IMG/VR virus record: IMGVR_UViG_3300015214_000033 | Location: 4,604 to 68,603 of that record | DNA from: a virus | Lineage: Duplodnaviria; Caudoviricetes | Direction: 5' to 3' (one strand) | DNA length: 64,000 nt | Shown: piece after piece, positions 2,730-31,686 of the stretch | Numbering within the stretch: the stretch's first letter is position 1 | How the letters are laid out: every line of letters begins with the position of its first letter | Made by a program: the position numbers and the translations under genes | The notes under the pieces: generated by a model | What the model was told of the DNA's origin: nothing | Seen by the model: the letters and a program-made list of their open reading frames with translations, nothing else | Databases searched by the model: none

Positions 2730-3055
2730 ATGATAAAGAGTTTTAAAGATTGGTGCTTTTAGAGTGCAGGTCGAGTAAATCGATCTCAATTTTTATTAAC
2801 CAAAGAAGAGATTGAACAATGGTTGAAAGATAATACAGAAATTGGTAATTATGTTATTAATGATGACATGACAGTTGATGTTAAGTCAATTAAAAAGATT
2901 GAAGTTAAGTTAGTGGTTACTTTGATTGCGGTTCTTGTACATCATTGACGAGCGTTGAGCATAAAGTCAGTTGGTCAATTTTAGATGACTATATTTTAGA
3001 CAAAAACATTGGTGGTTCAAGACGATCAATGGCAAAATTAAAAAAAGGATTTTAG
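2730..3055 (+). pseudogene. Frameshifted, internally deleted LRR-type jumbo-phage protein
   Basis: Fragments in shifting frames: MIKSFKDW; KEEIEQWLKDNTEIGNYVINDDMTVDV; SGYFDCGSCTSLTSVE (repeat unit); C-terminus GGSRRSMAKLKKGF*. Confidence 0.6.
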
Positions 3056-4508: not shown

Positions 4509-4946
4509 ATGAATACACCAAAATTAAATTATCAGTTACTATCAGGTAATGCTAAAGATCCAATACGTGGTACAATAGGTTCTTCTGGGATAGATGTGTT
4601 TTCTCCGATAGATATAATAGTACCAAAACATGGTGATGTGTTAATTCCGTTAGATATACGATTCGAAATTCCATATGGATGGGATTTGTCTGTATATAAT
4701 AAATCGGGTATTTCAACCAAAAAAAAATTAATTAAAGGTGCAGAATTAATAGATTCTGATTATAGAGGAACTGTGCATATACATTTTTTCAATATGTCAG
4801 ACACTGATGTTGAAATAAATAAGGGCGATAAAATAGCACAATTAGTTATGCGTGAAGTTTGGATGGGAGAATTAAATAAAGTAGATAATATAGATATAAA
4901 TACTGAACGTGGTGCAGGAGGATTTGGATCAACAGGAACAAAATAA
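4509..4946 (+). CDS. dut: dUTPase
   Basis: SSGIDV, LIDSDYRG, GDKIAQLV and RGAGGFGSTG motifs. Confidence 0.95.
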   Translation: MNTPKLNYQLLSGNAKDPIRGTIGSSGIDVFSPIDIIVPKHGDVLIPLDIRFEIPYGWDLSVYNKSGISTKKKLIKGAELIDSDYRGTVHIHFFNMSDTDVEINKGDKIAQLVMREVWMGELNKVDNIDINTERGAGGFGSTGTK

Positions 4947-6012: not shown

Positions 6013-6711
6013 ATGAACTATCAATTAATATATGATCATCTGATATTGAGTCGTAAAGAAAGAATAAAAGATCCAAATATATACTATGAAATTCATCATA
6101 TTATATTGCGATCAATGGGTGGATCAAATTTACCAGATAATTTAGTATCATTAACTGCCAGAGAACATTTTATTGCACATTGGTTATTATGGAGAATTTA
6201 TAGAAATAAACAGACAGCATTTGCATTCTATGCAATGTGTTCGTGGAAAAATAATAAAATTCAAGGCAAAGAACGGTCATTTTCATCCAGAGGTTACGCT
6301 GAAGCAAGAGAAGCTCTTTCTAAAGTAAAATGGACACATTCTAAAGAGACTAAATGTAAGATATCAGAGATAAAAACTGGAGTAAAACTTGGACCTATTT
6401 CGAATCATAGGTCACAAAAGTTGAAACAATATTTTATAGATAATAAATATTTGAGAATATGTGTATGTAATGTATGTGGAAATACTTTTGAGATAACAAA
6501 AAAGAGCGCTAATAAAACAATATATTGTTCTAAAAAATGTGCAAGTAGTGTAACAAATAAGAACAAACGTATTATTGAGGTTATAAACAAAACAACGTAT
6601 GAAACATTTACTTTTGAATCTATTAGTAAAGCTGCTAAAGAACTAAATATTAATAGAAGTATAATTTATTCATATAAAGAACATCCTATTTATAAATTTA
6701 AAATAATATGA
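6013..6711 (+). CDS. HNH homing endonuclease with a NUMOD3-like motif
   Basis: YYEIHHIILRSMGGSNLPDNLVSLTAREHFIAHWLL; HSKETKCKISE. Confidence 0.85.
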   Translation: MNYQLIYDHLILSRKERIKDPNIYYEIHHIILRSMGGSNLPDNLVSLTAREHFIAHWLLWRIYRNKQTAFAFYAMCSWKNNKIQGKERSFSSRGYAEAREALSKVKWTHSKETKCKISEIKTGVKLGPISNHRSQKLKQYFIDNKYLRICVCNVCGNTFEITKKSANKTIYCSKKCASSVTNKNKRIIEVINKTTYETFTFESISKAAKELNINRSIIYSYKEHPIYKFKII

Positions 6712-8087
6712 TAGATATAGAACAGTTGAGTGACAGATTGAGAATTTCTTATTATGATGAATCTGGTCAGGTTGCATTAAAAGATATAGCAATACCAAAA
6801 GCTGAAAAATTTGCTTGGGAACCAGCAGGTTCATCTAGAGCAGATAGTAAATTTGTCAGTTGGGATAACAAACCTATTAAAAAGAAAAATTCATTCTTTC
6901 TTAATAAATTTAGAATTGAAGAATTTATGTTAGGTCTTCCTGATTATATTACAAACGAAGTGTATGATTTTCATCAACCAGAAGTTTGGTTTTGTGATAT
7001 TGAGGTAGAAGTTCAGGATTCATTTCCAGACCCTGAACAAGCTGCAACACCAATAACAACTGTTGCATTAGTAAATCCTAAGAATAAAGAAGTTGTTGTT
7101 CTTGGAGTTAAAGAACTTACAAATCAAGAAGTAAATGATATTTGTAAGAAAACAAATAAATACTTTGAACAATATAATCTAAACTTCACTCTCCAGTATG
7201 TTTGTTTTAAATCTGAGGCAGAAATGTTAATGACTTTAATGGAACATTATATCAAGAAAATTCCTCTATTGACAGGCTGGAATTTCGTTGGATTTGACTG
7301 GAAATATATTGTAAATCGTTGTCGACGCGTTGGAATTGATCCAGCTAAATGTTCTATTGCAGGTAAACTTATGGGCAAGGAAGAAATTCCTTTACATAAA
7401 GTGATTGTCGATTATTTGGAACTGTATAAAAAATGGGATAGAGTTGTAAAAATTAAAGAAAACAACAAACTTGATACGGTAGCAAATCAAGTTCTTGGAC
7501 TTGAAAAAATTAAATATAGTGGAACATTGATGGATTTGTATAATACAGATTTTTTCACTTATGTTTATTACAACATTGTCGATACAATCCTTGTTCATCT
7601 TATTGATGAAAAAATTAAAACGATGCAAACATTCTTAATGCTTGGAAATATTACAAGAGTTGAAGCATTAAAAGCATTTTCACCTATTTGGATGACTGAA
7701 ATTGTATTGGCTCGTGAATTTTATGCAAAAGGTAAAGTTGTGGCAGAAATGAATAAAGCCACAAAAACATCAGGATTTGAAGGTGCATATGTTAAAAAGC
7801 CAGAAGTTGGTCTACATGAACATATTGCTATCTTTGACTTTGCTTCTCTATATCCATCAACAATGAGACAGTGGAATATTTCTCCTGAAATGTATAAGGG
7901 TAAAAATGTTGAGTTAAAACCTGGTTGGATTAAAACAGCATCTGGTTCAGTGTTTGACAATAATTCTGATTCAGTTATGAGAACTATATTGGAGGATTTT
8001 TATGCTCAACGTAAAGTTGCAAAGAAGAAATCATTTGATATTGAAAAGGAAATTGATGAACTTGAACACATTCTTAAAACAAAATAA
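6708..8087 (+). CDS. Family B DNA polymerase, N-terminal part (3'-5' exonuclease plus motif A), gp43A-like
   Basis: CDIEVE, LTGWNFVGFDWKYI, YNIVDT, GAYVKKP and DFASLYPS. Ends in the fingers region before motif B. Confidence 0.9.
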   Translation: MIDIEQLSDRLRISYYDESGQVALKDIAIPKAEKFAWEPAGSSRADSKFVSWDNKPIKKKNSFFLNKFRIEEFMLGLPDYITNEVYDFHQPEVWFCDIEVEVQDSFPDPEQAATPITTVALVNPKNKEVVVLGVKELTNQEVNDICKKTNKYFEQYNLNFTLQYVCFKSEAEMLMTLMEHYIKKIPLLTGWNFVGFDWKYIVNRCRRVGIDPAKCSIAGKLMGKEEIPLHKVIVDYLELYKKWDRVVKIKENNKLDTVANQVLGLEKIKYSGTLMDLYNTDFFTYVYYNIVDTILVHLIDEKIKTMQTFLMLGNITRVEALKAFSPIWMTEIVLAREFYAKGKVVAEMNKATKTSGFEGAYVKKPEVGLHEHIAIFDFASLYPSTMRQWNISPEMYKGKNVELKPGWIKTASGSVFDNNSDSVMRTILEDFYAQRKVAKKKSFDIEKEIDELEHILKTK

Positions 8088-18969: not shown

Positions 18970-20145
18970 ATGAATTTTGAGTGGTGTAAAATAGACCCTG
19001 AAACTTCAACAAAAGAAGAATTAGAGGTTGAAATTAAAAGACTTAGAGATTTAGCAAACACATATATGAATGCTGAACAAGCAGTAAAGATCTTTATTAA
19101 CTCTGTATATGGAGCATGTGGTTCTCCGTGGTTTGCATTTTTCAATATGGATGTTGCAGAAGCAGTAACGTTACAGGGACAAGACCTTATCAAATATGCA
19201 GAACTGGTAGTTGATAGGTATTTCTTGAATTTTTGGCATAAAGATACTGAACTACATAAAAAGCTTGGTCTTACTAGAGTAGAAAAAGTTACAGGAACGA
19301 TGAATGTTTATTGTGATACGGATTCATCATTTGTGAGATTTTCAGAATTATTGGATAATTGTGATTGGAAAGGTACTCCTAAAGAATTTATTTTAAAGAT
19401 ATATGAAGTATTTTTATCAGACTATTTACAAAAATGTTTTGACATCTATGCCAAAAAACAGGGTACTGACAATGTACAATCTTTTGAACTTGAGAAAATA
19501 CTCGATTCAGGTGTTTGGTTAGCTAAAAAGAAATATGTATACAATACTGTGTGGAAAGATCCAGGTATTCATATAGATGCACTAAAAGAAATCACAGCAA
19601 AAGGTGTAGAAATTGTACAGTCATCATCTTCTCCTTATGCTAGAGCAACATTAAAAAATCTTTTAAAGTACATCTTTACTAAGAAGAGAGATTTTAATCA
19701 AGCAGAATTTATAGGTCTTCTTAAAAAATATAAAGAAGAGTTTAAACTAAAAAATCTTGAAGATATTTCTCATGCGTCTTCTATTGGAGATTATGACAAA
19801 CATGTACTTCAGGATAAAGATACACTTACGATTGGAAAGGGTTGTCCAATTCATGTAAGAGGCGCTGGAATTTATAATCATACTTTGTATAATTCTAAAT
19901 TTAGAAATAAATATGAAGCTATACATTCAGGTGAAAAGATCAAATATTATCATGTGAAAACAAAGGATGATGCAACAAATGTGTTTTCATATATTCCAGG
20001 GTCATTTCCTGTAGAATTTGCACCTCAGATTGATTATGATATGCAATTTAATAAAAGCATCATACAACCAATCAATCGATTTGTCGAAGCAATGGGATTT
20101 AGTCCAATAAGTTTCAATTTAGTATCATCAACACAATTATTTTAA
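18970..20145 (+). CDS. Family B DNA polymerase, C-terminal part (motifs B and C, thumb), gp43B-like
   Basis: EQAVKIFINSVYG, YCDTDS, KKKY and KGVEIVQS. Confidence 0.9.
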   Translation: MNFEWCKIDPETSTKEELEVEIKRLRDLANTYMNAEQAVKIFINSVYGACGSPWFAFFNMDVAEAVTLQGQDLIKYAELVVDRYFLNFWHKDTELHKKLGLTRVEKVTGTMNVYCDTDSSFVRFSELLDNCDWKGTPKEFILKIYEVFLSDYLQKCFDIYAKKQGTDNVQSFELEKILDSGVWLAKKKYVYNTVWKDPGIHIDALKEITAKGVEIVQSSSSPYARATLKNLLKYIFTKKRDFNQAEFIGLLKKYKEEFKLKNLEDISHASSIGDYDKHVLQDKDTLTIGKGCPIHVRGAGIYNHTLYNSKFRNKYEAIHSGEKIKYYHVKTKDDATNVFSYIPGSFPVEFAPQIDYDMQFNKSIIQPINRFVEAMGFSPISFNLVSSTQLF

Positions 20146-21028: not shown

Positions 21029-22012
21029 ATGGCAAAACAAGTAAAAGAATTTTCGTTTAGTGACTTAGATAAAACACTAACGAAAGTGGATCCGTTAGGA
21101 TCCGTTATGACAGAAAATTCATTCTCTAAAATTGATGATTGGATTGGAACTGGAAATTATATGCTGAATGCACAATTAGGTGGTTCTATTTTTAAAGGAG
21201 CACCGAATTCAAGAAGTATTGTATTTTCAGGTGTTTCTGGTACAGGTAAAACATTTATTGTACTAAATTCAGTGCGAGAAATGCAAAAGAAAGGTTACTA
21301 TGTAATATATGGTGACTCTGAAGCTGCGGTAGATGAAACTACTATGATAAATTTTGGAATTGATCCTGCAAAGATTAGATACCAACCGTTTAAAACTGTA
21401 TTACAAGTTAGACACTTTGTTGCTAATCTTACAACAACACTTAAAGAGAAAAAAGCAGCTGGATATGATGTTCCAAAGATTGGAATGGTGTTAGATTCTT
21501 TAGGTAACTTGGCAACTGAGAAAGAGGTTACAGATGCTCATTCAGGTTCTGATAAACGTGATATGACTAAGCAACAAAATCTTAAATCATTGTTTAGAGT
21601 AATTACAACAGATTTAGCGGAATTAAAAATTCCATTTTACATAACAAACCATGTATATGCATGTTTGCATGGAAATACTTTAGTTGAAACTAAAGATGGT
21701 CAAAAATACATATCAGATATTAAAGTTGGAGACTACGTCCACACAATGGATGGATTAAAGGATGTTATTAATACATTTAAGTATGATAATGCAAAAACAT
21801 TAATCATTGAAACTGAACACGGAAATATTGAATGTACTCCAAACCACAAATTCATGGTTAAAATAAATAATACATTTGAATGGAAATGTGCAGAAGATCT
21901 AAAAATAGATGATGAGATTTTAAAAATAGAGAAGTTTGACAGCATAGACATGATATATAAAGAAAACCGGAAATATCATGGTTCAGAACTCATTTCTTTT
22001 AACATTGAATAG
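21029..22012 (+). CDS. uvsX: UvsX/RecA fragment 1: N-extein plus split intein N-part (IntN1, 21662-22009, 116 aa)
   Basis: Walker A GVSGTGKT, LDSLG and ...ITNHVYA|CLHGNTLV; block B CTPNHKF; stop at 22010. Confidence 0.9.
   Translation: MAKQVKEFSFSDLDKTLTKVDPLGSVMTENSFSKIDDWIGTGNYMLNAQLGGSIFKGAPNSRSIVFSGVSGTGKTFIVLNSVREMQKKGYYVIYGDSEAAVDETTMINFGIDPAKIRYQPFKTVLQVRHFVANLTTTLKEKKAAGYDVPKIGMVLDSLGNLATEKEVTDAHSGSDKRDMTKQQNLKSLFRVITTDLAELKIPFYITNHVYACLHGNTLVETKDGQKYISDIKVGDYVHTMDGLKDVINTFKYDNAKTLIIETEHGNIECTPNHKFMVKINNTFEWKCAEDLKIDDEILKIEKFDSIDMIYKENRKYHGSELISFNIE
21952..21960 (+). promoter_or_regulatory. GATATATAA motif inside IntN1, upstream of endonuclease 1
   Basis: 17 nt before the ATG at 21978. 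Confidence 0.55.
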
Positions 22013-23176
22013 TAAATTACTAACATATTTGCATTCTAAAAATATACTTACAGATGACCAATTTGTTGATTACATTAAAAACATGAATGGAAATTCAACA
22101 GTTGGTTTATCTAAAGTATTAAAATCAACGAATTCAATGTCATATGTATTTTCATATTTCAATGAAAAAATAACATCAATGAAAGAATTAAAAAACTTTG
22201 TTGATCATGGCTATATAGAAGATTTACAAGATATTTGTATATGTGGTAATATTAAAAATGTTAATAAGAAGTATTGTTCTCATTCTTGTGCAATGAAAAA
22301 CAGAGATTTGACTATTAGAGATGCTGCTGCATTAAAAAGTAAAAAAACATGGGATTCATATGATAATAATAAGAAAGAGCAAATTAAGCAGAACCGTATA
22401 AATGGTATAATAAAAAAATACGGTACAGATCATGTATGGAAAAATCCTGAGTCTATTGAAAAACGAAAAAAAAAACATGGCTTAAAAAATATGGAGTAGA
22501 TAATCCAAATAAAAATTCTGAACAAATAAAAAAAGTTAAAAATACTAATATTGAACGATATGGATTTACATGTCCATTGAAAAATCATGAGATTAAACAG
22601 AAAAGTATGCAAACTTTATTTACAAATTTTGGTGTTGAGAATCCAATGCATGTAAAAGATATTTGTAATAAAGTAGTAAAATCATCTATACAAACATATT
22701 TAGATAAATGGGGATTTGAAAATCCATTCAATAATCCTAAATTTAAAGAATTATGGTTAGAAAAATTTGAAAAAAATATTAAAAAGTCATTTTCATATAA
22801 AGATTATGTACTACCAAGTGGTCATATAATAAAAGTATAAGGATATGAAAATTATGCTATTGATTATTTGATGAATAATTTTAATGAGAATGATTTTGTT
22901 TTTTCTTTTAAGATTAAAAGATTTCAGTATGAGTATGAAAATAAAAAAAGAACGTATATACCAGATATTTATATTAAATCTGTAAATACTATATATGAAG
23001 TTAAATCCAAATATACATTGGATAAAAATTTAGATACTACTATTTTAAAAGCAAAATCAGTTATTGATTCAGATATAAATTTTAATTTATTATTGTGTAA
23101 TACAAAACAAATAAAAATATTGACATATGAAGAACTTATCGACTATAAAAGTCAAAAATATCAAAGAATCTTTTAA
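21978..23176 (+). pseudogene. Degenerate free-standing PD-(D/E)XK-type homing endonuclease with KYGVDNP-type repeats
   Basis: Frameshift at A10 (22466-22475) and in-frame TAA at 22838 (KV*GYENYAIDYL); YIPDIYI...EVKS nuclease core. Confidence 0.75.
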
Positions 23177-23579
23177 TTCTGTATATGATATTGAAGTAAA
23201 AGATTCAAAACACTATATTTTATCAAATGGTATAGTATCTCATAATAGTGTTGGAAGTTATGTTCCATCTAACATACAATCAGGAGGTTGTTTAGTTCCT
23301 GGAACATTAGTTAGAACACCAAATGGAACTTCTAAAATAGAAGATATTAAAAAAGGTGATTATGTGATGACACTCAATGGTGAAAAAGAAGTATTAGATA
23401 CCTTTACATTTAATGAAGATGATGCAAAAAAAGTATGGGAAATAGAGTTAGATAATGGTATTATTCATAGAGTATCTGAAGATCATAAATTTTTAGTTTC
23501 CACAGATTGGAAAAATCCATATTCATGGAAAAAAATATATGAATTGAAAGAAACTGATGAAATATATGCAATAAAATAA
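23127..23579 (+). CDS. uvsX: UvsX/RecA fragment 2: IntC1 (40 aa), 14 aa extein, IntN2 (96 aa)
   Basis: VYDIEV...GIVSHN|SVGSYVPSNIQSGG|CLVPGT...VSEDHKF...*. Confidence 0.9.
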   Translation: MKNLSTIKVKNIKESFNSVYDIEVKDSKHYILSNGIVSHNSVGSYVPSNIQSGGCLVPGTLVRTPNGTSKIEDIKKGDYVMTLNGEKEVLDTFTFNEDDAKKVWEIELDNGIIHRVSEDHKFLVSTDWKNPYSWKKIYELKETDEIYAIK

Positions 23580-23606
23580 GTCCAATCAAAAAGCTCATTG
23601 CACATA

Positions 23607-23615
23607 GATATATAA
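23607..23615 (+). promoter_or_regulatory. GATATATAA motif upstream of endonuclease 2
   Basis: Intergenic, 13 nt before the ATG at 23629. Confidence 0.6.
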
Positions 23616-23628
23616 AATAAAAAGTGCA

Positions 23629-24678
23629 ATGAGCTATAAATGGACTAAAGATTTTAAAAATAGAGATTATGTTGAATTTAAAAATTTTTTTAAAGAACAT
23701 AATAAATTATTTAACTTGAACATTAATAATGATGATAACCTAACGAATATTTCTAAAAAAATGTCTGATTTATTAATAAATGAACATTCATTTGGAATAA
23801 ATCAAATATTATCAACATTTAGATCTATTGCAAAAAATTTTAGTAATAAAACACGTAGTGATGTATGTATAGAATACTATAGATTTAGAGGTTATGATGA
23901 TGATTACGCATATAATCAAATTTCAGAAAGACAACGTCGCAAATCTAAATTAAGTATTGAATATTGGTTAAATAAAGGATATGATGAAATTTCTGCTAAA
24001 GAACAAGTAAGTATTTTACAATCTAAATTATCAAAAAAGAGAACACATAAGATTTTATCAGATGAAAACTATGCAAAAAGTATTTCTGCGTGGTCTATTA
24101 ATTACTGGATAAAAAAGGGTCTAAGTAAAGAAGATGCTGCGGAGAAAATAAAAGAGTATAATCCGTCATGTAGAAATTTTTATGATACTAGTATTGCATA
24201 CGAAAATGCTAAAAAAAGTATATCAAAACGAGTTAAAAAATTATGGGAAAATGGTGTATATGATGATAAAGTTAAAATGATTAACACTCGATATACATCA
24301 AAGCAGGAAAAATTATTTTTTAACTTGTTAATAAATGAAAAAGAAATCGATAATTTTATATATGAACCATTTGGAATAAATGTTAGATCTAATTCAGATG
24401 ATTTTTATTATGTATATGATGCATATATTAAAACCAATGATGGAATTATTTTAGTAGAATATGATGGAACATATTGGCATGATATTGATAAAGATTTTAA
24501 GCGAGATGATGTTGTGTTGAATATAAGAAAAGATATTATAGGAGTTATAAGAATAAATGACTTTTATTTTTATAAATATAATCAAACTTTAAAAATAATT
24601 ATAAATAGTATACAAGATGGAATTGAAAAAATTAAAAATAAAGAAACTAACAGAGTTATCTTATATGAAAGTGCATGA
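23629..24678 (+). CDS. Free-standing Vsr/PD-(D/E)XK-like homing endonuclease
   Basis: YWxxKGYxxxxA repeats; C-terminal YDAYI...VEYDGTYWHD. Confidence 0.75.
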   Translation: MSYKWTKDFKNRDYVEFKNFFKEHNKLFNLNINNDDNLTNISKKMSDLLINEHSFGINQILSTFRSIAKNFSNKTRSDVCIEYYRFRGYDDDYAYNQISERQRRKSKLSIEYWLNKGYDEISAKEQVSILQSKLSKKRTHKILSDENYAKSISAWSINYWIKKGLSKEDAAEKIKEYNPSCRNFYDTSIAYENAKKSISKRVKKLWENGVYDDKVKMINTRYTSKQEKLFFNLLINEKEIDNFIYEPFGINVRSNSDDFYYVYDAYIKTNDGIILVEYDGTYWHDIDKDFKRDDVVLNIRKDIIGVIRINDFYFYKYNQTLKIIINSIQDGIEKIKNKETNRVILYESA

Positions 24679-25342
24679 TATTTCTGTTAAAGATGTTGAA
24701 CATTATATTTTAGATGATGGAATTATTTCACATAATTCAGGAGCAATTTATAATGCATCTATCATTTTAGAATTTGCGAAAGCAGGATTGAAAGAAAATG
24801 ATAAAGAAGCTGCTGAACAAGGTCAACAAAAATCTGGTATCGTTGTAACTTCTAAAGTTGTAAAAAATCGTTTTGCAAGACCTCTTCCAATCAAGTTCCA
24901 TATCTCTTTTTATAAAGGTATGAATCCTTATGTTGGACTTGAAAATTATGTTTCATGGGAAACCTGTGGAATCGAGAGAGGTAAACTTATTGAGGAAATC
25001 ATAGAAGAACCTGTTTTCGAGGACGATGGAGTAACACCTGTAATTTATAGAGGTAAACCTAAGGTAAACAAAGTAAATACAGGAAAAATGATATTTGAGC
25101 CTGATCCTAAAGGTAAAAAGTTTGCTGTTAAACATCTTGGAAAAGAAGTTAAAAACATCTTTACATCAGAAGTTTTTACTGATGAAGTTTTACAGCAATT
25201 GGATGATGTTATCAGACCTATTTTTGAACTTCCAAAGACAATGACAACTGATTTTGATGAGTTGGAAGAAGCAATGGGATTCGATGATGACGATGATGAC
25301 GTTGATGAAATGGATGAAAGATTTATTCAAGATGAAGCTTAA
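24617..25342 (+). CDS. uvsX: UvsX/RecA fragment 3: IntC2 (40 aa) plus C-extein
   Basis: VHDISV...GIISHN|SGAIYNASIILEF...KNRFARP; acidic tail. Confidence 0.9.
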   Translation: MELKKLKIKKLTELSYMKVHDISVKDVEHYILDDGIISHNSGAIYNASIILEFAKAGLKENDKEAAEQGQQKSGIVVTSKVVKNRFARPLPIKFHISFYKGMNPYVGLENYVSWETCGIERGKLIEEIIEEPVFEDDGVTPVIYRGKPKVNKVNTGKMIFEPDPKGKKFAVKHLGKEVKNIFTSEVFTDEVLQQLDDVIRPIFELPKTMTTDFDELEEAMGFDDDDDDVDEMDERFIQDEA

Positions 25343-27428: not shown

Positions 27429-28517
27429 ATGAAGAAAAATATCAATAGAATTTTTATGATTTCTGACACTCATTTGGGTGTCAGGAATAGTTCTGTAGAA
27501 TGGATGGACATCATTAGAGAATATTTCTATGATTTTTTAATTCCATTATTAAAAAAGGAAGCTAAACCAGGAGATGTGTTATTTCATTTGGGTGATCTTT
27601 TCGATTCACGACAATCATTGAATTTATTAGTCATGAATGAGGGGATGAAGATTTTTGAAGATATATCTAAAATACTTCCAGTGCATATTATATTGGGAAA
27701 TCATGACATCTATAAAAAATTCAGCAATGATATAAATTCAGTAAAAATACTAAACTGGATTCCAAATATTTTTGTTGTAGAAGAACCAATGATTATTGAA
27801 ACACAATCAAAAAAATTGTTTTTAATGCCATGGCGTGCAAATCATGAAGAAGAAACTGAATGTATTAAACAACATTCTGCAAATTACATGTTTTGTCATG
27901 CTGATGTTGCTGGATTAAAATTCAATAAGAAAGTTTCTGTTGAAGATGGAATTGATCTTGATGATATGAGTAAATTCGATAAAGTATTTTCAGGACATAT
28001 TCATTATGCTCAAAAACGAAAAAACTTTACTATGATTGGATGTCCATATCCACTTACTCGATCTGATATGAATAATACAAAAGGTGTTATATGTTTAGAT
28101 GTCAACTCGGGTGAAGAAGAATTTTTTGAGAATACCATGTCACCAAGATTCATAAGAGTAAATTTCGATAAATTGCTTAATATGGAAGAAGATGATGTGA
28201 AAAAAATGTTCAATAATAATTTTGTTGATGTACTGGTAGATCATAAATGGACACTCAACTTTCCATTCTCTACATTTTATGATGACGTAGTCGGATATCG
28301 TGTGTTAGAATTTATTCCAACAGTAAACGATGAAGATAATGAATATCTAATTGGAGGTGATGAAGAAATGGGTAAGATTGATATTGTAGAGCTATCTAAT
28401 AAGTTGATTCAGAACACTTCGCATAATGATAATATAAAAGATAAATTATTAAAAGTCGTAAAAATATTACATGCCAAAGTTAATAAACTTGATGGTGGCG
28501 ATAATGATGATGAATAA
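27429..28517 (+). CDS. SbcD/Mre11-like nuclease (gp47)
   Basis: SDTHLG, LGDLFD, GNHD, CHAD and SGHIH. Confidence 0.92.
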   Translation: MKKNINRIFMISDTHLGVRNSSVEWMDIIREYFYDFLIPLLKKEAKPGDVLFHLGDLFDSRQSLNLLVMNEGMKIFEDISKILPVHIILGNHDIYKKFSNDINSVKILNWIPNIFVVEEPMIIETQSKKLFLMPWRANHEEETECIKQHSANYMFCHADVAGLKFNKKVSVEDGIDLDDMSKFDKVFSGHIHYAQKRKNFTMIGCPYPLTRSDMNNTKGVICLDVNSGEEEFFENTMSPRFIRVNFDKLLNMEEDDVKKMFNNNFVDVLVDHKWTLNFPFSTFYDDVVGYRVLEFIPTVNDEDNEYLIGGDEEMGKIDIVELSNKLIQNTSHNDNIKDKLLKVVKILHAKVNKLDGGDNDDE

Positions 28518-28519
28518 CT

Positions 28520-28762
28520 ATGAAGATATTAAATGTAGAATATAGAAATTTTGGGTCATATGGAAATAGAACTGTTAAGCTAAAACTTCCAGATGACCCT
28601 GGATTTTGGCTTATACAAGGGAAAAACGGTCACGGCAAATGCGTTATGCCAGACACTAAAATTAAAATTAGTGTCAATAAGACAGAGTTAGAAAAAATTA
28701 ATACTTTTTTGAAAATATATAGATCAAAAAAGGGATTAAATGGCAATGGAAAACTGGAGTAG
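28520..28762 (+). CDS. SbcC/gp46 fragment 1: 40 aa N-extein plus short split IntN (28640-28759)
   Basis: YRNFGSYG...IQGKNGHGK|CVMPDTKIKI...*. Confidence 0.85.
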   Translation: MKILNVEYRNFGSYGNRTVKLKLPDDPGFWLIQGKNGHGKCVMPDTKIKISVNKTELEKINTFLKIYRSKKGLNGNGKLE

Positions 28763-29770
28763 AATATGTCCGGAATGTGGAGATACTATCATATATAAGA
28801 ATAAATATAAAATGAATTCTGATAGTAAAAAAGGCATTCTTTGTAAATTATGTAGAAAAAAATATAGAAAAAAAACATATTCATGTTTTAATAAACTTCA
28901 TTGGATAGATAAAGGGTATTCTGAAAAAGATGCTATAAAAAAGGTATTTGAAATACAATCTAAAATTTCAAAAAAACGAAAACCAGAAACACGTACTGGC
29001 AAAAATTCACCCTTTAAAAAGGAAACATGGATTGCAAAGGGATATTCTGAAGAAGAAGCAATAAAAAAATCAAGAAGCTTTAATAAACTTAATAAAGAGT
29101 ATTGGATTGCAAAGGGATATTCTGAAGAAGAAGCAATAAAAAATATTTCATTATTTCAACAATCGTTGGCTAAAAGGAAAAAAAAGAATGACGATATTCT
29201 ACCAAATCAATATAAATATTGGATAAAGAAAGGATATTCTGAAGAAGAAGCAAAAGCAAAAGTCTGTGAACGTCAATCTACATTTACATTAGAAAAATGT
29301 AAACAAAAATATGGTATAGAAAAAGGAACAATAATTTTTAATGAAAGACAACGTAAATGGAAACAGAAAATTTTCAATAAATACGGTTCAATTGCTAAAT
29401 CTACATCTAGTTATAATATTATGATTGCTGAAACATTGATGATAGAATATCCTAATATTTTATTTGGAAAAGATGAAAAATTCATATATGATAATGTTAA
29501 TGAAAGAGTATATAAATATGATATATGTGATCCTATTTCTAAAAAATAATAGAAATAAATGGAGATTTTTGGCACATGAATCCATATAAATATTCATGTA
29601 CAGATATAAATCCAGTAACAAAAAATATGGCTATCGATATATGGAATTTTGATAAAATTAAAATTCAATGTGCAATAGATCATAATTATACCGTATTAGT
29701 TATATGGGAATCTGATATAGTTAATAATAAAGATAAAATATTAGAAAAATGCAAGAATTTTTTGAAATAG
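28740..29770 (+). CDS. Free-standing Vsr-like homing endonuclease (frameshift at A6 29541-29546)
   Basis: CPECG zinc motif, four WIxKGYSEEEA repeats, and across the shift KIIEINGDFWHMNP...LVIWESD. Confidence 0.75.
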
Positions 29771-31686
29771 AATGTACACTTGAAGAGTTATATGAATATA
29801 ATAAACATGCTAATTCTATATATGATAATAAAATATATGTTAGTACAAAATTTGGAAAAAAATGTATAGAAAATATTGCATATACTGCATATAATGAACC
29901 TACTTTATCAATAAGAACAGAAACAGAAAAAAATATAAAAGTTTCTAATAATCATATTTTATATGATGTTAATGGTATTGAAATTAAATCAAAAGATTTA
30001 GAAATTGGAAATTATATAGAAACTACAGATGGATATGAATTAATAACATATATAGAATCGATTGGTAATTACGATTTAATGGATATACAAGTAGACGATG
30101 TTCATGAATATTACGCTAATGGTATTCGTTCACACAACTCAACAATATCTGATGTTATTAAATTTGCTATTTATGGAAGATTGGAGAAAAAGAAACTTCG
30201 CGATCTTGCAAACCGTTTAAATAAAAATGCATATGTTCATATAGATATGATTACCAAAAAAGGTAAACTTACTATTGAACGAGGTATAGAACCAAGCATA
30301 TTTGATGTTTGGATAAACGATGTAAAATTCGATAAAGCCGGAAAGAAATCTGTTCAAGATTATTTAGAAGAAGAAATTTTAGAGATGCCATTTTATGTAT
30401 TTTCTAATACACTTTCACTTTCAATAAATGATTTTAAGAGTTTTTTGACCATGAATAATCACGATAAGAAAACTATCATTGATAAAATATTTGGCTTACA
30501 AATGTTAAATCAAATGAGAGAACTTATCAAAGGTCAGATCAAAAAGCTTAAAAGTAATATGGATGCTATTGATTCTAGCATCTCTGCATTTGAACATAGT
30601 TTAACTACATCAACCACCGAATTAGAAACACTAGAAGAACAAATTAAACAGGATAAATCTGATAAAATAGTAAAGTTAAATGAACAAAAACTAATTTATG
30701 AAGATGGTTTAAGAAAGTGTTTATCCAATTTAGAAAAAATAGAAGCAAAATATACAGAGATTAGAAAATCAAAAGTATCTGTACAAAATTCTATTTCAGA
30801 TGATAGAAGAAATAAAGCTATTGCACAAGAGAAAATCGATCTATATAAAAACTCAAAATGTCCTGTTTGTGAATCTGATCTTGATACAGATTTTCATACA
30901 ACTATTTTAAAAGAGTATCAAAATGCGTCTATAGAACTTGATGAATCTATGGCTGCTAAAACAGAAACTCTAAATAAGTTAAATGAAAATCTTAAGAAAT
31001 TAGAAAGTCTTAAAACTGATACAGAACGAAATAGAGGCTCTATTAGATCTAAATTAAATTTAACTCAAAGAGAAATTGACGAGTCTAGTGAAACAATAGA
31101 TGACAAACAATTAGGCTCATTGCGTAAGATAATTAAAGATGCTAAAACAAACATCGATACAAATAAGAAAGCACATGTAAATACTCAAAAAGAAGTATCT
31201 TTCTATGGAATCTTGGATGAAATACTTGGAGATAAAGGAGTAAAACAACTCGCAATTAAAACAATTGTTCCACCATTAAATGTGGAAATTGGACGAATTG
31301 TAAAACATCTTGGTGTAGATCATAAAATTATTTTTAATGAAGAGTTTGATGCAAAAATAACTCACTTTGGAATTGAAGTTAGTCCAGAAACACTTAGTAC
31401 AGGTGAAATGAAAAAGGTCGATTTTGCAGTTTTACTTGCTGTTATAAAAATGATGAAGATAAAATATCCATATTTGAATTTGTTATTTTTAGATGAAATA
31501 TTTTCAAGTATTGATGGTGATGGACAGTATTATATTCTAAAGATATTAAGAGAAAGTGTTAAAGATTATGGACTGAATATATTCGTTATCAGCCACTATC
31601 CGTTATCATATTCCGAGTTTGATTATAAAATAGAAGTAACAAAAGCGAATGGCTTTTCGCAAATGGAAATAAAAACCGTAGAATAA
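29749..31686 (+). CDS. SbcC/gp46 fragment 2: long IntC (130 aa, to 30138) plus C-extein
   Basis: VSNNHIL (block B), LMDIQV...YYANGIRSHN|STISD; CPVC zinc hook, LSTGE signature and LFLDE. Confidence 0.9.
   Translation: MQEFFEIECTLEELYEYNKHANSIYDNKIYVSTKFGKKCIENIAYTAYNEPTLSIRTETEKNIKVSNNHILYDVNGIEIKSKDLEIGNYIETTDGYELITYIESIGNYDLMDIQVDDVHEYYANGIRSHNSTISDVIKFAIYGRLEKKKLRDLANRLNKNAYVHIDMITKKGKLTIERGIEPSIFDVWINDVKFDKAGKKSVQDYLEEEILEMPFYVFSNTLSLSINDFKSFLTMNNHDKKTIIDKIFGLQMLNQMRELIKGQIKKLKSNMDAIDSSISAFEHSLTTSTTELETLEEQIKQDKSDKIVKLNEQKLIYEDGLRKCLSNLEKIEAKYTEIRKSKVSVQNSISDDRRNKAIAQEKIDLYKNSKCPVCESDLDTDFHTTILKEYQNASIELDESMAAKTETLNKLNENLKKLESLKTDTERNRGSIRSKLNLTQREIDESSETIDDKQLGSLRKIIKDAKTNIDTNKKAHVNTQKEVSFYGILDEILGDKGVKQLAIKTIVPPLNVEIGRIVKHLGVDHKIIFNEEFDAKITHFGIEVSPETLSTGEMKKVDFAVLLAVIKMMKIKYPYLNLLFLDEIFSSIDGDGQYYILKILRESVKDYGLNIFVISHYPLSYSEFDYKIEVTKANGFSQMEIKTVE

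Follow-up and report, generated by a model that had tools for sequence, protein, structure and literature searches.

A phage uvsX gene divided into three pieces by two split inteins on either side of the L2 loop

The subject of this report is the gene for the recombinase UvsX in an uncultured T4-like virus of the Caudoviricetes (IMG/VR record IMGVR_UViG_3300015214_000033), of which we analysed a window of 64,000 nucleotides corresponding to positions 4,604 to 68,603 of the record. In this window uvsX consists of three open reading frames (ORFs) that lie in one order on the plus strand, ORF1 (21029-22012), ORF2 (23127-23579) and ORF3 (24617-25342), and that carry, next to the recombinase segments (the exteins), the N-terminal (IntN) and C-terminal (IntC) halves of two split inteins. 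Each of the two gaps between the pieces holds a gene of the homing-endonuclease type. Judging from the sequence, this doubly fractured gene probably gives rise to a UvsX of 426 residues through ordered trans-splicing by two mutually orthogonal intein pairs.

The three uvsX pieces and the L2 loop

ORF1 codes for 327 residues, the first 211 of which (21029..21661, plus strand) form the N-extein, running from the Walker A region to ..ITNHVYA and recognisable in 49 homologous loci. Pfam RecA matches ORF1 with 30.9 bits (cut-off 27), and the N-extein matches phage UvsX/recombinase structures in the PDB (7Z3M, E 1e-27; 9GBG, E 2e-26), which places a RecA-fold ATPase core with its Walker A motif in this piece. 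The remaining 116 residues (21662..22012, plus strand) are IntN1, the N-half of split intein 1, which starts with CLHGNT, contains block B in the form TPNH and ends at a stop codon. Matches to Hint and Intein_splicing cover residues 208-299 of the ORF.

The middle piece, ORF2, is only 150 residues long. It begins with IntC1, the C-half of split intein 1 (23127..23246, plus strand; 40 residues ending in GIVSHN), recognised both by Pfam and by parsing, continues with a middle extein of 14 residues, SVGSYVPSNIQSGG (23247..23288, plus strand), and closes with IntN2, the N-half of split intein 2 (23289..23579, plus strand; 96 residues starting with CLVPG, block B SEDH, then a stop). Pfam finds the C-terminal blocks of Intein_splicing at residues 5-40 and the N-terminus of Hint_2 at residues 55-91. 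The Hint_2 match scores 31.5 bits with a cut-off of 28.4; the Intein_splicing match covers positions 119-155 of the profile, and its whole-protein score of 33.5 bits is slightly below the cut-off of 35.8. The nearest solved structure is that of the gp41-1 intein (6QAZ). An earlier note on this DNA had described the 150-residue ORF as IntC1, 14 extein residues and IntN2 and had assigned these residues to L2, the DNA-binding loop of the recombinase; parsing and Pfam reproduce the first description exactly at 23127-23579, and the second is borne out by the homologues considered below.

ORF3 codes for 241 residues. Its first 40 (24617..24736, plus strand) are IntC2, the C-half of split intein 2, which ends in GIISHN and whose start overlaps the 3' end of the second endonuclease gene; the C-terminal Intein_splicing blocks are again detected by Pfam. 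The C-extein follows (24737..25342, plus strand; 201 residues), beginning with SGAIYNAS, ending at a stop and matching 48 related loci by tblastn.

Upstream of the ATG the reading frame is open for one codon in ORF2 and for four codons in ORF3, so that the uvsX pieces cannot be read through. Stop codons close IntN1 (22012) and IntN2 (23579) and thus leave the halves of each intein on separate polypeptides. At both junctions Cys1, the block-B [ST]xxH, the terminal HN and the +1 Ser are intact, as in class 1 inteins of the HINT type. No gene of this phage is preceded by a Shine-Dalgarno sequence, so that plain AT-rich leaders, such as those of ORF2 and ORF3, are normal in this genome.

The identity of the 14-residue extein follows from uninterrupted genes. 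None of the 49 related IMG/VR loci is interrupted at either site, and all of them read NHxYA-x-[IV]GSYxPxxxxSGG-GGxxYNAS. Between the stretches that match the N- and C-exteins of the window, these loci leave 14-15 codons with the same motif, so that SVGSYVPSNIQSGG is exactly the missing piece. Aligned with HMMER, one of the uninterrupted homologues (L004) matches, over the L2 stretch, IGVMFGNPETTTGG of E. coli RecA as well as the equivalent part of the phage UvsX structures 9GBG and 7Z3M. In the usual RecA numbering IGVMFGNPETTTGG corresponds to I199-G212, i.e., the core of L2 (195-209) and the GG that follows it. The 14-residue extein and its flanks thus align to the L2 region of RecA and UvsX, with the loop followed by GG.

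Recurrence of the layout and states of the two intein sites

The order IntC-L2-IntN is by no means restricted to the window. Scanning 1.84 billion cluster representatives (50% identity) with HMMER gave 155 proteins at E <=1e-10; the 155 proteins examined comprise 150 listed by the scan together with earlier matches. A strict pattern, consisting of an intein end HN, then S/T/C, a micro-extein of 8-15 residues ending in G and the Cys1 of a new intein, is found in 26 of the 155, and two further proteins (P0008 and P0045) were added by eye, which brings the number to about 28. In 17 of these about 28 cases the layout takes the form of a stand-alone middle ORF of 135-175 residues, as in ORF2. Cys1, the block-B [ST]xxH and HN followed by S/T/C are all kept in the 26 parsed proteins. 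The layout, carried by about 28 of 155 representatives, is thus both widespread and under selection.

Each of the two inteins also occurs without the other. Split intein 1 alone is present in P0005 and P0006. The first of these, a Logan-derived protein without intein 2, agrees with the window at 96% identity in the stretch of IntC1 and L2 and at 88% in the C-extein, which starts, past the site, with 26 residues that are the same in both. The existence of such genomes suggests that the lineage of the window gained or lost intein 2 recently. Conversely, split intein 2 is found alone in P0004/L053, together with a homologue of the second endonuclease gene. Further states are seen at site 2, where a split intein occurs without an endonuclease (L055, L057) or with an HNH endonuclease (L056, L058), and at site 1, where L054 and P0008 have a contiguous mini-intein. 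In L054 (252-1771) a single precursor ORF contains a contiguous mini-intein of 125 residues at site 1, an L2 extein of 13 residues and the N-half of the site-2 intein, and the gap at site 2 measures 70 nucleotides and holds no endonuclease gene; cis- and trans-splicing thus seem to be combined in one gene. The opposite combination, a split intein at site 1 and a contiguous one at site 2, is present in P0015, P0025, P0033, P0067, P0070 and P0079. Since the relatives hold nearly every state of the two sites, the two inteins come and go independently of each other, and the double-split state of the window is one combination among many.

A third intein hot spot of the uvsX family is the P-loop. 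In nine loci (L029, L043-L048, L050 and L052) uvsX is uninterrupted at the L2 sites and has an insertion of 0.5-2 kilobases near the P-loop (N-extein residues ~60-72). P0008 has a further intein, the C-terminal end of which lies immediately before the GK of Walker A.

Endonuclease genes and genome setting

The first gap is occupied by a free-standing gene (21978..23176, plus strand) assigned to DUF7487 by Pfam (E 7e-13 and 1e-9) and to 'homing endonuclease' families by PHROGs (3339 and 15137). In the window this endonuclease gene 1 is broken into three ORFs (21978-22499, 22577-22840 and 22868-23176) by a frameshift in a run of ten A residues (A10) near 22466 and by a TAA codon at 22838. Contigs from other sequencing runs differ at precisely these points: in runs X4, X5 and X7 the A-run is 2 nucleotides shorter (A8), and in runs X4, X5, X7 and X9 base 22838 is C instead of T, which turns TAA into CAA. 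With both changes the gene becomes a single ORF of 398 residues, so that it is intact in sibling populations, and the damage in the window is either very recent decay or an error of the contig.

A homopolymer and a single base that differ between the window and other runs might raise the suspicion that the separate uvsX ORFs, too, are mimicked by a chimeric contig or by frameshift errors. Such an artefact is extremely unlikely. The differences fall within endonuclease gene 1, outside the uvsX pieces, and the relatives, too, regularly have stops after IntN1 and IntN2 followed by new starts of IntC1 and IntC2. Moreover, independent runs on groundwater and landfill samples contain contigs of >=99% identity that span IntN1, endonuclease gene 1, IntC1 and the extein on the one hand and endonuclease gene 1, ORF2 and endonuclease gene 2 on the other; since these contigs come from other studies and bridge the junctions, the arrangement is not a product of assembly. 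Three weak read joints, 23593-24621 (which would leave out endonuclease gene 2), 23168-24717 (IntC1 to IntC2) and 22921-24784, had a shorter side of 21-22 nucleotides and a likeness of 85%; they were considered unreliable and not used.

The broken endonuclease gene also bears on the question of whether uvsX itself is still alive. One could imagine that repeated invasion, which broke up the gene and placed selfish genes between its three parts, has turned it into a pseudogene, and that the phage resorts to the recombinase of its host or to another one. This is very unlikely, since the three uvsX ORFs are open and every catalytic residue of the inteins is intact. The exteins are conserved (88% identity to P0005, zero stops), the layout is kept across many diverged lineages, and the damage in the window is confined to an endonuclease gene that sibling populations have preserved.

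Endonuclease-like gene 2, likewise free-standing, lies in the second gap (23629..24678, plus strand; 349 residues) and is intact. A homologue with 53-54% identity occupies the same place in L053, between IntN2 and IntC2. The protein has no sequence match in Pfam, PHROGs or the PDB. A model of its fold, itself of low confidence with a predicted local distance difference test (pLDDT) score of 53, gave weak matches only (E >=0.02), mostly to nucleases of the PD-(D/E)XK type, and a DGxYWHD stretch was seen by eye in the C-terminal region when a Vsr-like (EDxHD) catalytic domain was looked for by sequence and fold; a nuclease function is only hinted at. Both IntC-containing ORFs begin within the 3' ends of the endonuclease ORFs.

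A short motif, GATATATAA, precedes both endonuclease genes, at 21952..21960 (plus strand; 17 nucleotides before gene 1) and at 23607..23615 (plus strand; 13 nucleotides before gene 2). The window contains nine copies, all on the plus (coding) strand (positions 3055, 8214, 21952, 23607, 33982, 34775, 40229, 44717 and 56326), where 2.9 are expected, and most of them lie 10-35 nucleotides before the start of an ORF. The motif is a candidate phage promoter. A scan of the window for sigma-70 promoters showed no enrichment (39 found vs 39.8 expected).

The split uvsX belongs to a module of T4-like replication and recombination genes on the plus strand, which also includes a split PolB, topoisomerase II, a gp41-type helicase and gp47/gp46-like nucleases; the GC content of the window is 29.5%. 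Metagenomes from several studies (runs X1-X19) contain the phage, with landfill, groundwater, leachate, biofilm and wastewater as their sources. No marine sample is among these runs, whereas the classic fractured genes stem from ocean sampling data. A blastn search of the locus against GenBank phages gave a single match (66% identity over 9% of the query), and ORF2 as a query found no match among viral contigs.

Two other genes of the module are interrupted as well. The family B polymerase PolB is divided between 6708-8087, which carries the exonuclease and the start of the polymerase domain, and 18970-20145, which carries the remainder; the two ORFs are ~11 kilobases apart, have topoisomerase genes between them and show no Hint domain in either. 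A third split intein resides in a gp46/SbcC-like gene (27429-31686), where an IntC region ends in ..GIRSHN|ST at ~30138. The endonuclease-like ORF 28740-29549, which lies between the gp46/SbcC-like pieces, has repeats of the type WIxKGYSEEEA in common with endonuclease gene 2 (35% identity over 92 residues). Given this third element, at least three split inteins would have to function together in this phage.

Pairing of the intein halves and relation to known systems

According to the scheme that we favour, two related, distinct split inteins of the gp41-1 type would have invaded conserved DNA flanking the L2 codons, each bringing along a free-standing homing-endonuclease gene. The gene would then be read as three proteins, N-extein-IntN1, IntC1-L2 (14 residues)-IntN2 and IntC2-C-extein. 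IntN1 would pair with IntC1 and IntN2 with IntC2, and the two trans-splicing reactions, in either order, would produce a seamless UvsX of 426 residues. That splicing takes place, and that the pairs are orthogonal, is inferred.

The element type as such is already known. In fractured genes a free-standing homing-endonuclease gene sits between the halves of a split intein (Dassa et al. 2009, PMC2677866), and gp41-1, gp41-8, NrdJ-1 and IMPDH-1 are the members that have been tested. The window shares with them the same-strand order of N-extein-IntN, stop, endonuclease ORF and IntC-C-extein, the location in a phage gene of DNA metabolism, and the residues Cys1 and +1 Ser. Uninterrupted alleles that can serve as homing targets exist (the 49 loci, and P0004, P0005 and P0006 with a single intein), and in both units the two intein halves enclose an endonuclease ORF of the same strand, although the nuclease nature of the second is only suggested. 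Unlike the published cases, the window has two such units separated by 14 codons, and a third, middle gene arises in this way; its endonuclease 1 is of the DUF7487 type and its endonuclease 2 belongs to no recognised family. The survey itself (PMC2677866) lists no case in uvsX, which figures there as a neighbouring gene only, nor any gene that split inteins interrupt at two places.

The L2 region is equally a known target of mobile elements, as illustrated by the RecA intein of Mycobacterium leprae and by the group I intron of I-Bth0305I in the recA gene of phage 0305phi8-36 (PMC3239194). These elements are single and contiguous, however, whereas two split inteins bracket the loop in the window. 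Finally, the three-piece scheme is established in protein engineering, where tandem trans-splicing joins N-fragment-IntN(A), IntC(A)-short peptide-IntN(B) and IntC(B)-C-fragment (PMC7210297, PMC11168065, PMC12707363), and middle constructs such as IMPDH-1 IntC-extein-NrdJ-1 IntN are laboratory twins of ORF2. The version in the window differs in being natural and phage-encoded, with native junctions; in addition, engineered pairs are chosen for proven orthogonality, while the inteins of the window are 46% (IntN) and 51% (IntC) identical to each other. A full-text search of the literature found no paper on a fractured uvsX or on any natural gene that two split inteins divide so as to leave a middle gene with a micro-extein.

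Another engineered system, SICLOPPS, in which split inteins ligate peptides and proteins into circles, brings to mind the opposite outcome. There, as in ORF2, IntC, a peptide with a +1 nucleophile and an IntN starting with Cys1 follow each other on one polypeptide. If the two pairs of the window cross-reacted, ORF2 would cyclise itself through IntC1 and IntN2 and release cyclo(SVGSYVPSNIQSGG), IntN1 and IntC2 would join to give a dominant-negative UvsX without L2 that poisons filaments, and the ratio of the pieces would tune recombinase activity. Both products are chemically possible, because both junctions use Cys1 and a +1 Ser. We nevertheless consider this outcome unlikely. The likeness to SICLOPPS proposed in the earlier note holds for the layout, with IntC, peptide and IntN on a single chain, but not for the origin of the halves: SICLOPPS cyclises because its two cognate halves come from one intein, whereas IntC1 has its relatives at site 1 and IntN2 at site 2, and their partners reside on ORF1 and ORF3.

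A number of observations do weigh against orthogonality of the pairs. Besides the identities of IntN1 to IntN2 and of IntC1 to IntC2 given above, the last 26 residues of the two IntC halves are 62% identical, the top of a range of 19-62% among eight double-intein proteins or genomes; this comparison is ungapped and rough, with some tails out of register, and serves to contrast identities within a genome (mean 36%) with those between genomes (mean 40%). Electrostatic steering would not keep the pairs apart, because the polarity of charge is the same in both inteins (net charge -7 for IntN1 and -5 for IntN2, both acidic; +3 and +4 for the basic first 20 residues of IntC1 and IntC2). With IntC1 and IntN2 on a single chain, their local concentration is high. 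IntN1 has two comparators only from site 1, and the IntN2 of its own genome equals its best matches elsewhere. Moreover, neither a Shine-Dalgarno sequence nor a proven promoter sets the expression of the uvsX pieces, and the GATATATAA motifs before the endonuclease genes could allow ORF2 and ORF3 to be transcribed apart from ORF1.

On the other side, the comparison with other phages points to two old, co-resident lineages rather than to a fresh duplication, because three of the four halves are nearest to halves from the same site elsewhere: IntC1 to IntC halves at site 1 in other phages (56-68% identity), IntC2 to those of site 2 (L053, 62%; P0007, 66%) and IntN2 to site-2 IntN halves (P0002, P0003 and L053, 55-57%). 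A layout kept in about 28 diverged clusters would be hard to reconcile with a middle piece that destroys itself. Near relatives with one intein or none manage without any such switch, and no conserved feature indicates a role for the free L2 peptide. Precedent argues in the same direction: gp41-1, gp41-8, IMPDH-1 and NrdJ-1, four related natural split inteins, showed zero cross-splicing in 20 heterologous pairs, including IntC-extein-IntN constructs (PMC11168065), and 15 of 16 inteins proved mutually orthogonal in another study (PMC7090010). Engineers do treat cyclisation as a real risk with non-orthogonal pairs (PMC11168065).

Structure prediction gave no verdict, either on a folding of IntC1 onto IntN2 or on the pairing of the halves. 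AlphaFold2 modelled ORF2 alone, from an alignment of three sequences, with a mean pLDDT of 52 and values <50 for residues 27-55, and a three-chain prediction (IntN1 region, ORF2 and IntC2 region) scored 0.39, compared with 0.72 for a control in which ORF2 was replaced. Sequence by itself cannot decide the matter and leaves room for cross-pairing; taken together with the precedent, however, the comparative data make orthogonal pairs and ordinary, ordered assembly the likely course of events. A milder variant, somewhat less probable still than outright cross-reaction, is that the pairs are partly orthogonal, so that a share of ORF2 would cyclise to the L2 14-mer, or a UvsX without L2 would cap or poison filaments, and the expression of the pieces would set recombinase activity during infection. 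If true, this would be the first natural reaction of the SICLOPPS type and the first case of 'exon skipping' at the protein level that serves a function.

Under the favoured scheme of two orthogonal pairs, the SICLOPPS-like look of ORF2 would be a side effect of homing that took place twice, independently, at hot spots next to each other. ORF2 would not be a cyclic-peptide device, and the pairs would ignore each other sufficiently for the recombinase to form. Phages would then have arrived naturally at the design of tandem trans-splicing, with the DNA-binding loop of an important recombinase at its centre. The family would offer co-evolved intein pairs with native Ser/Thr junctions, very probably functional together in one cell and thus candidate orthogonal tools, and a natural test of how much divergence suffices for orthogonality, at ~50% identity and with no charge swap. 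It would also be a clean test of whether cyclic peptides or skipped proteins are ever made by inteins in nature. Moreover, with relatives that represent the intermediates (no intein, one or two, contiguous or split, with or without an endonuclease), the life cycle of these elements may be read at a single site.

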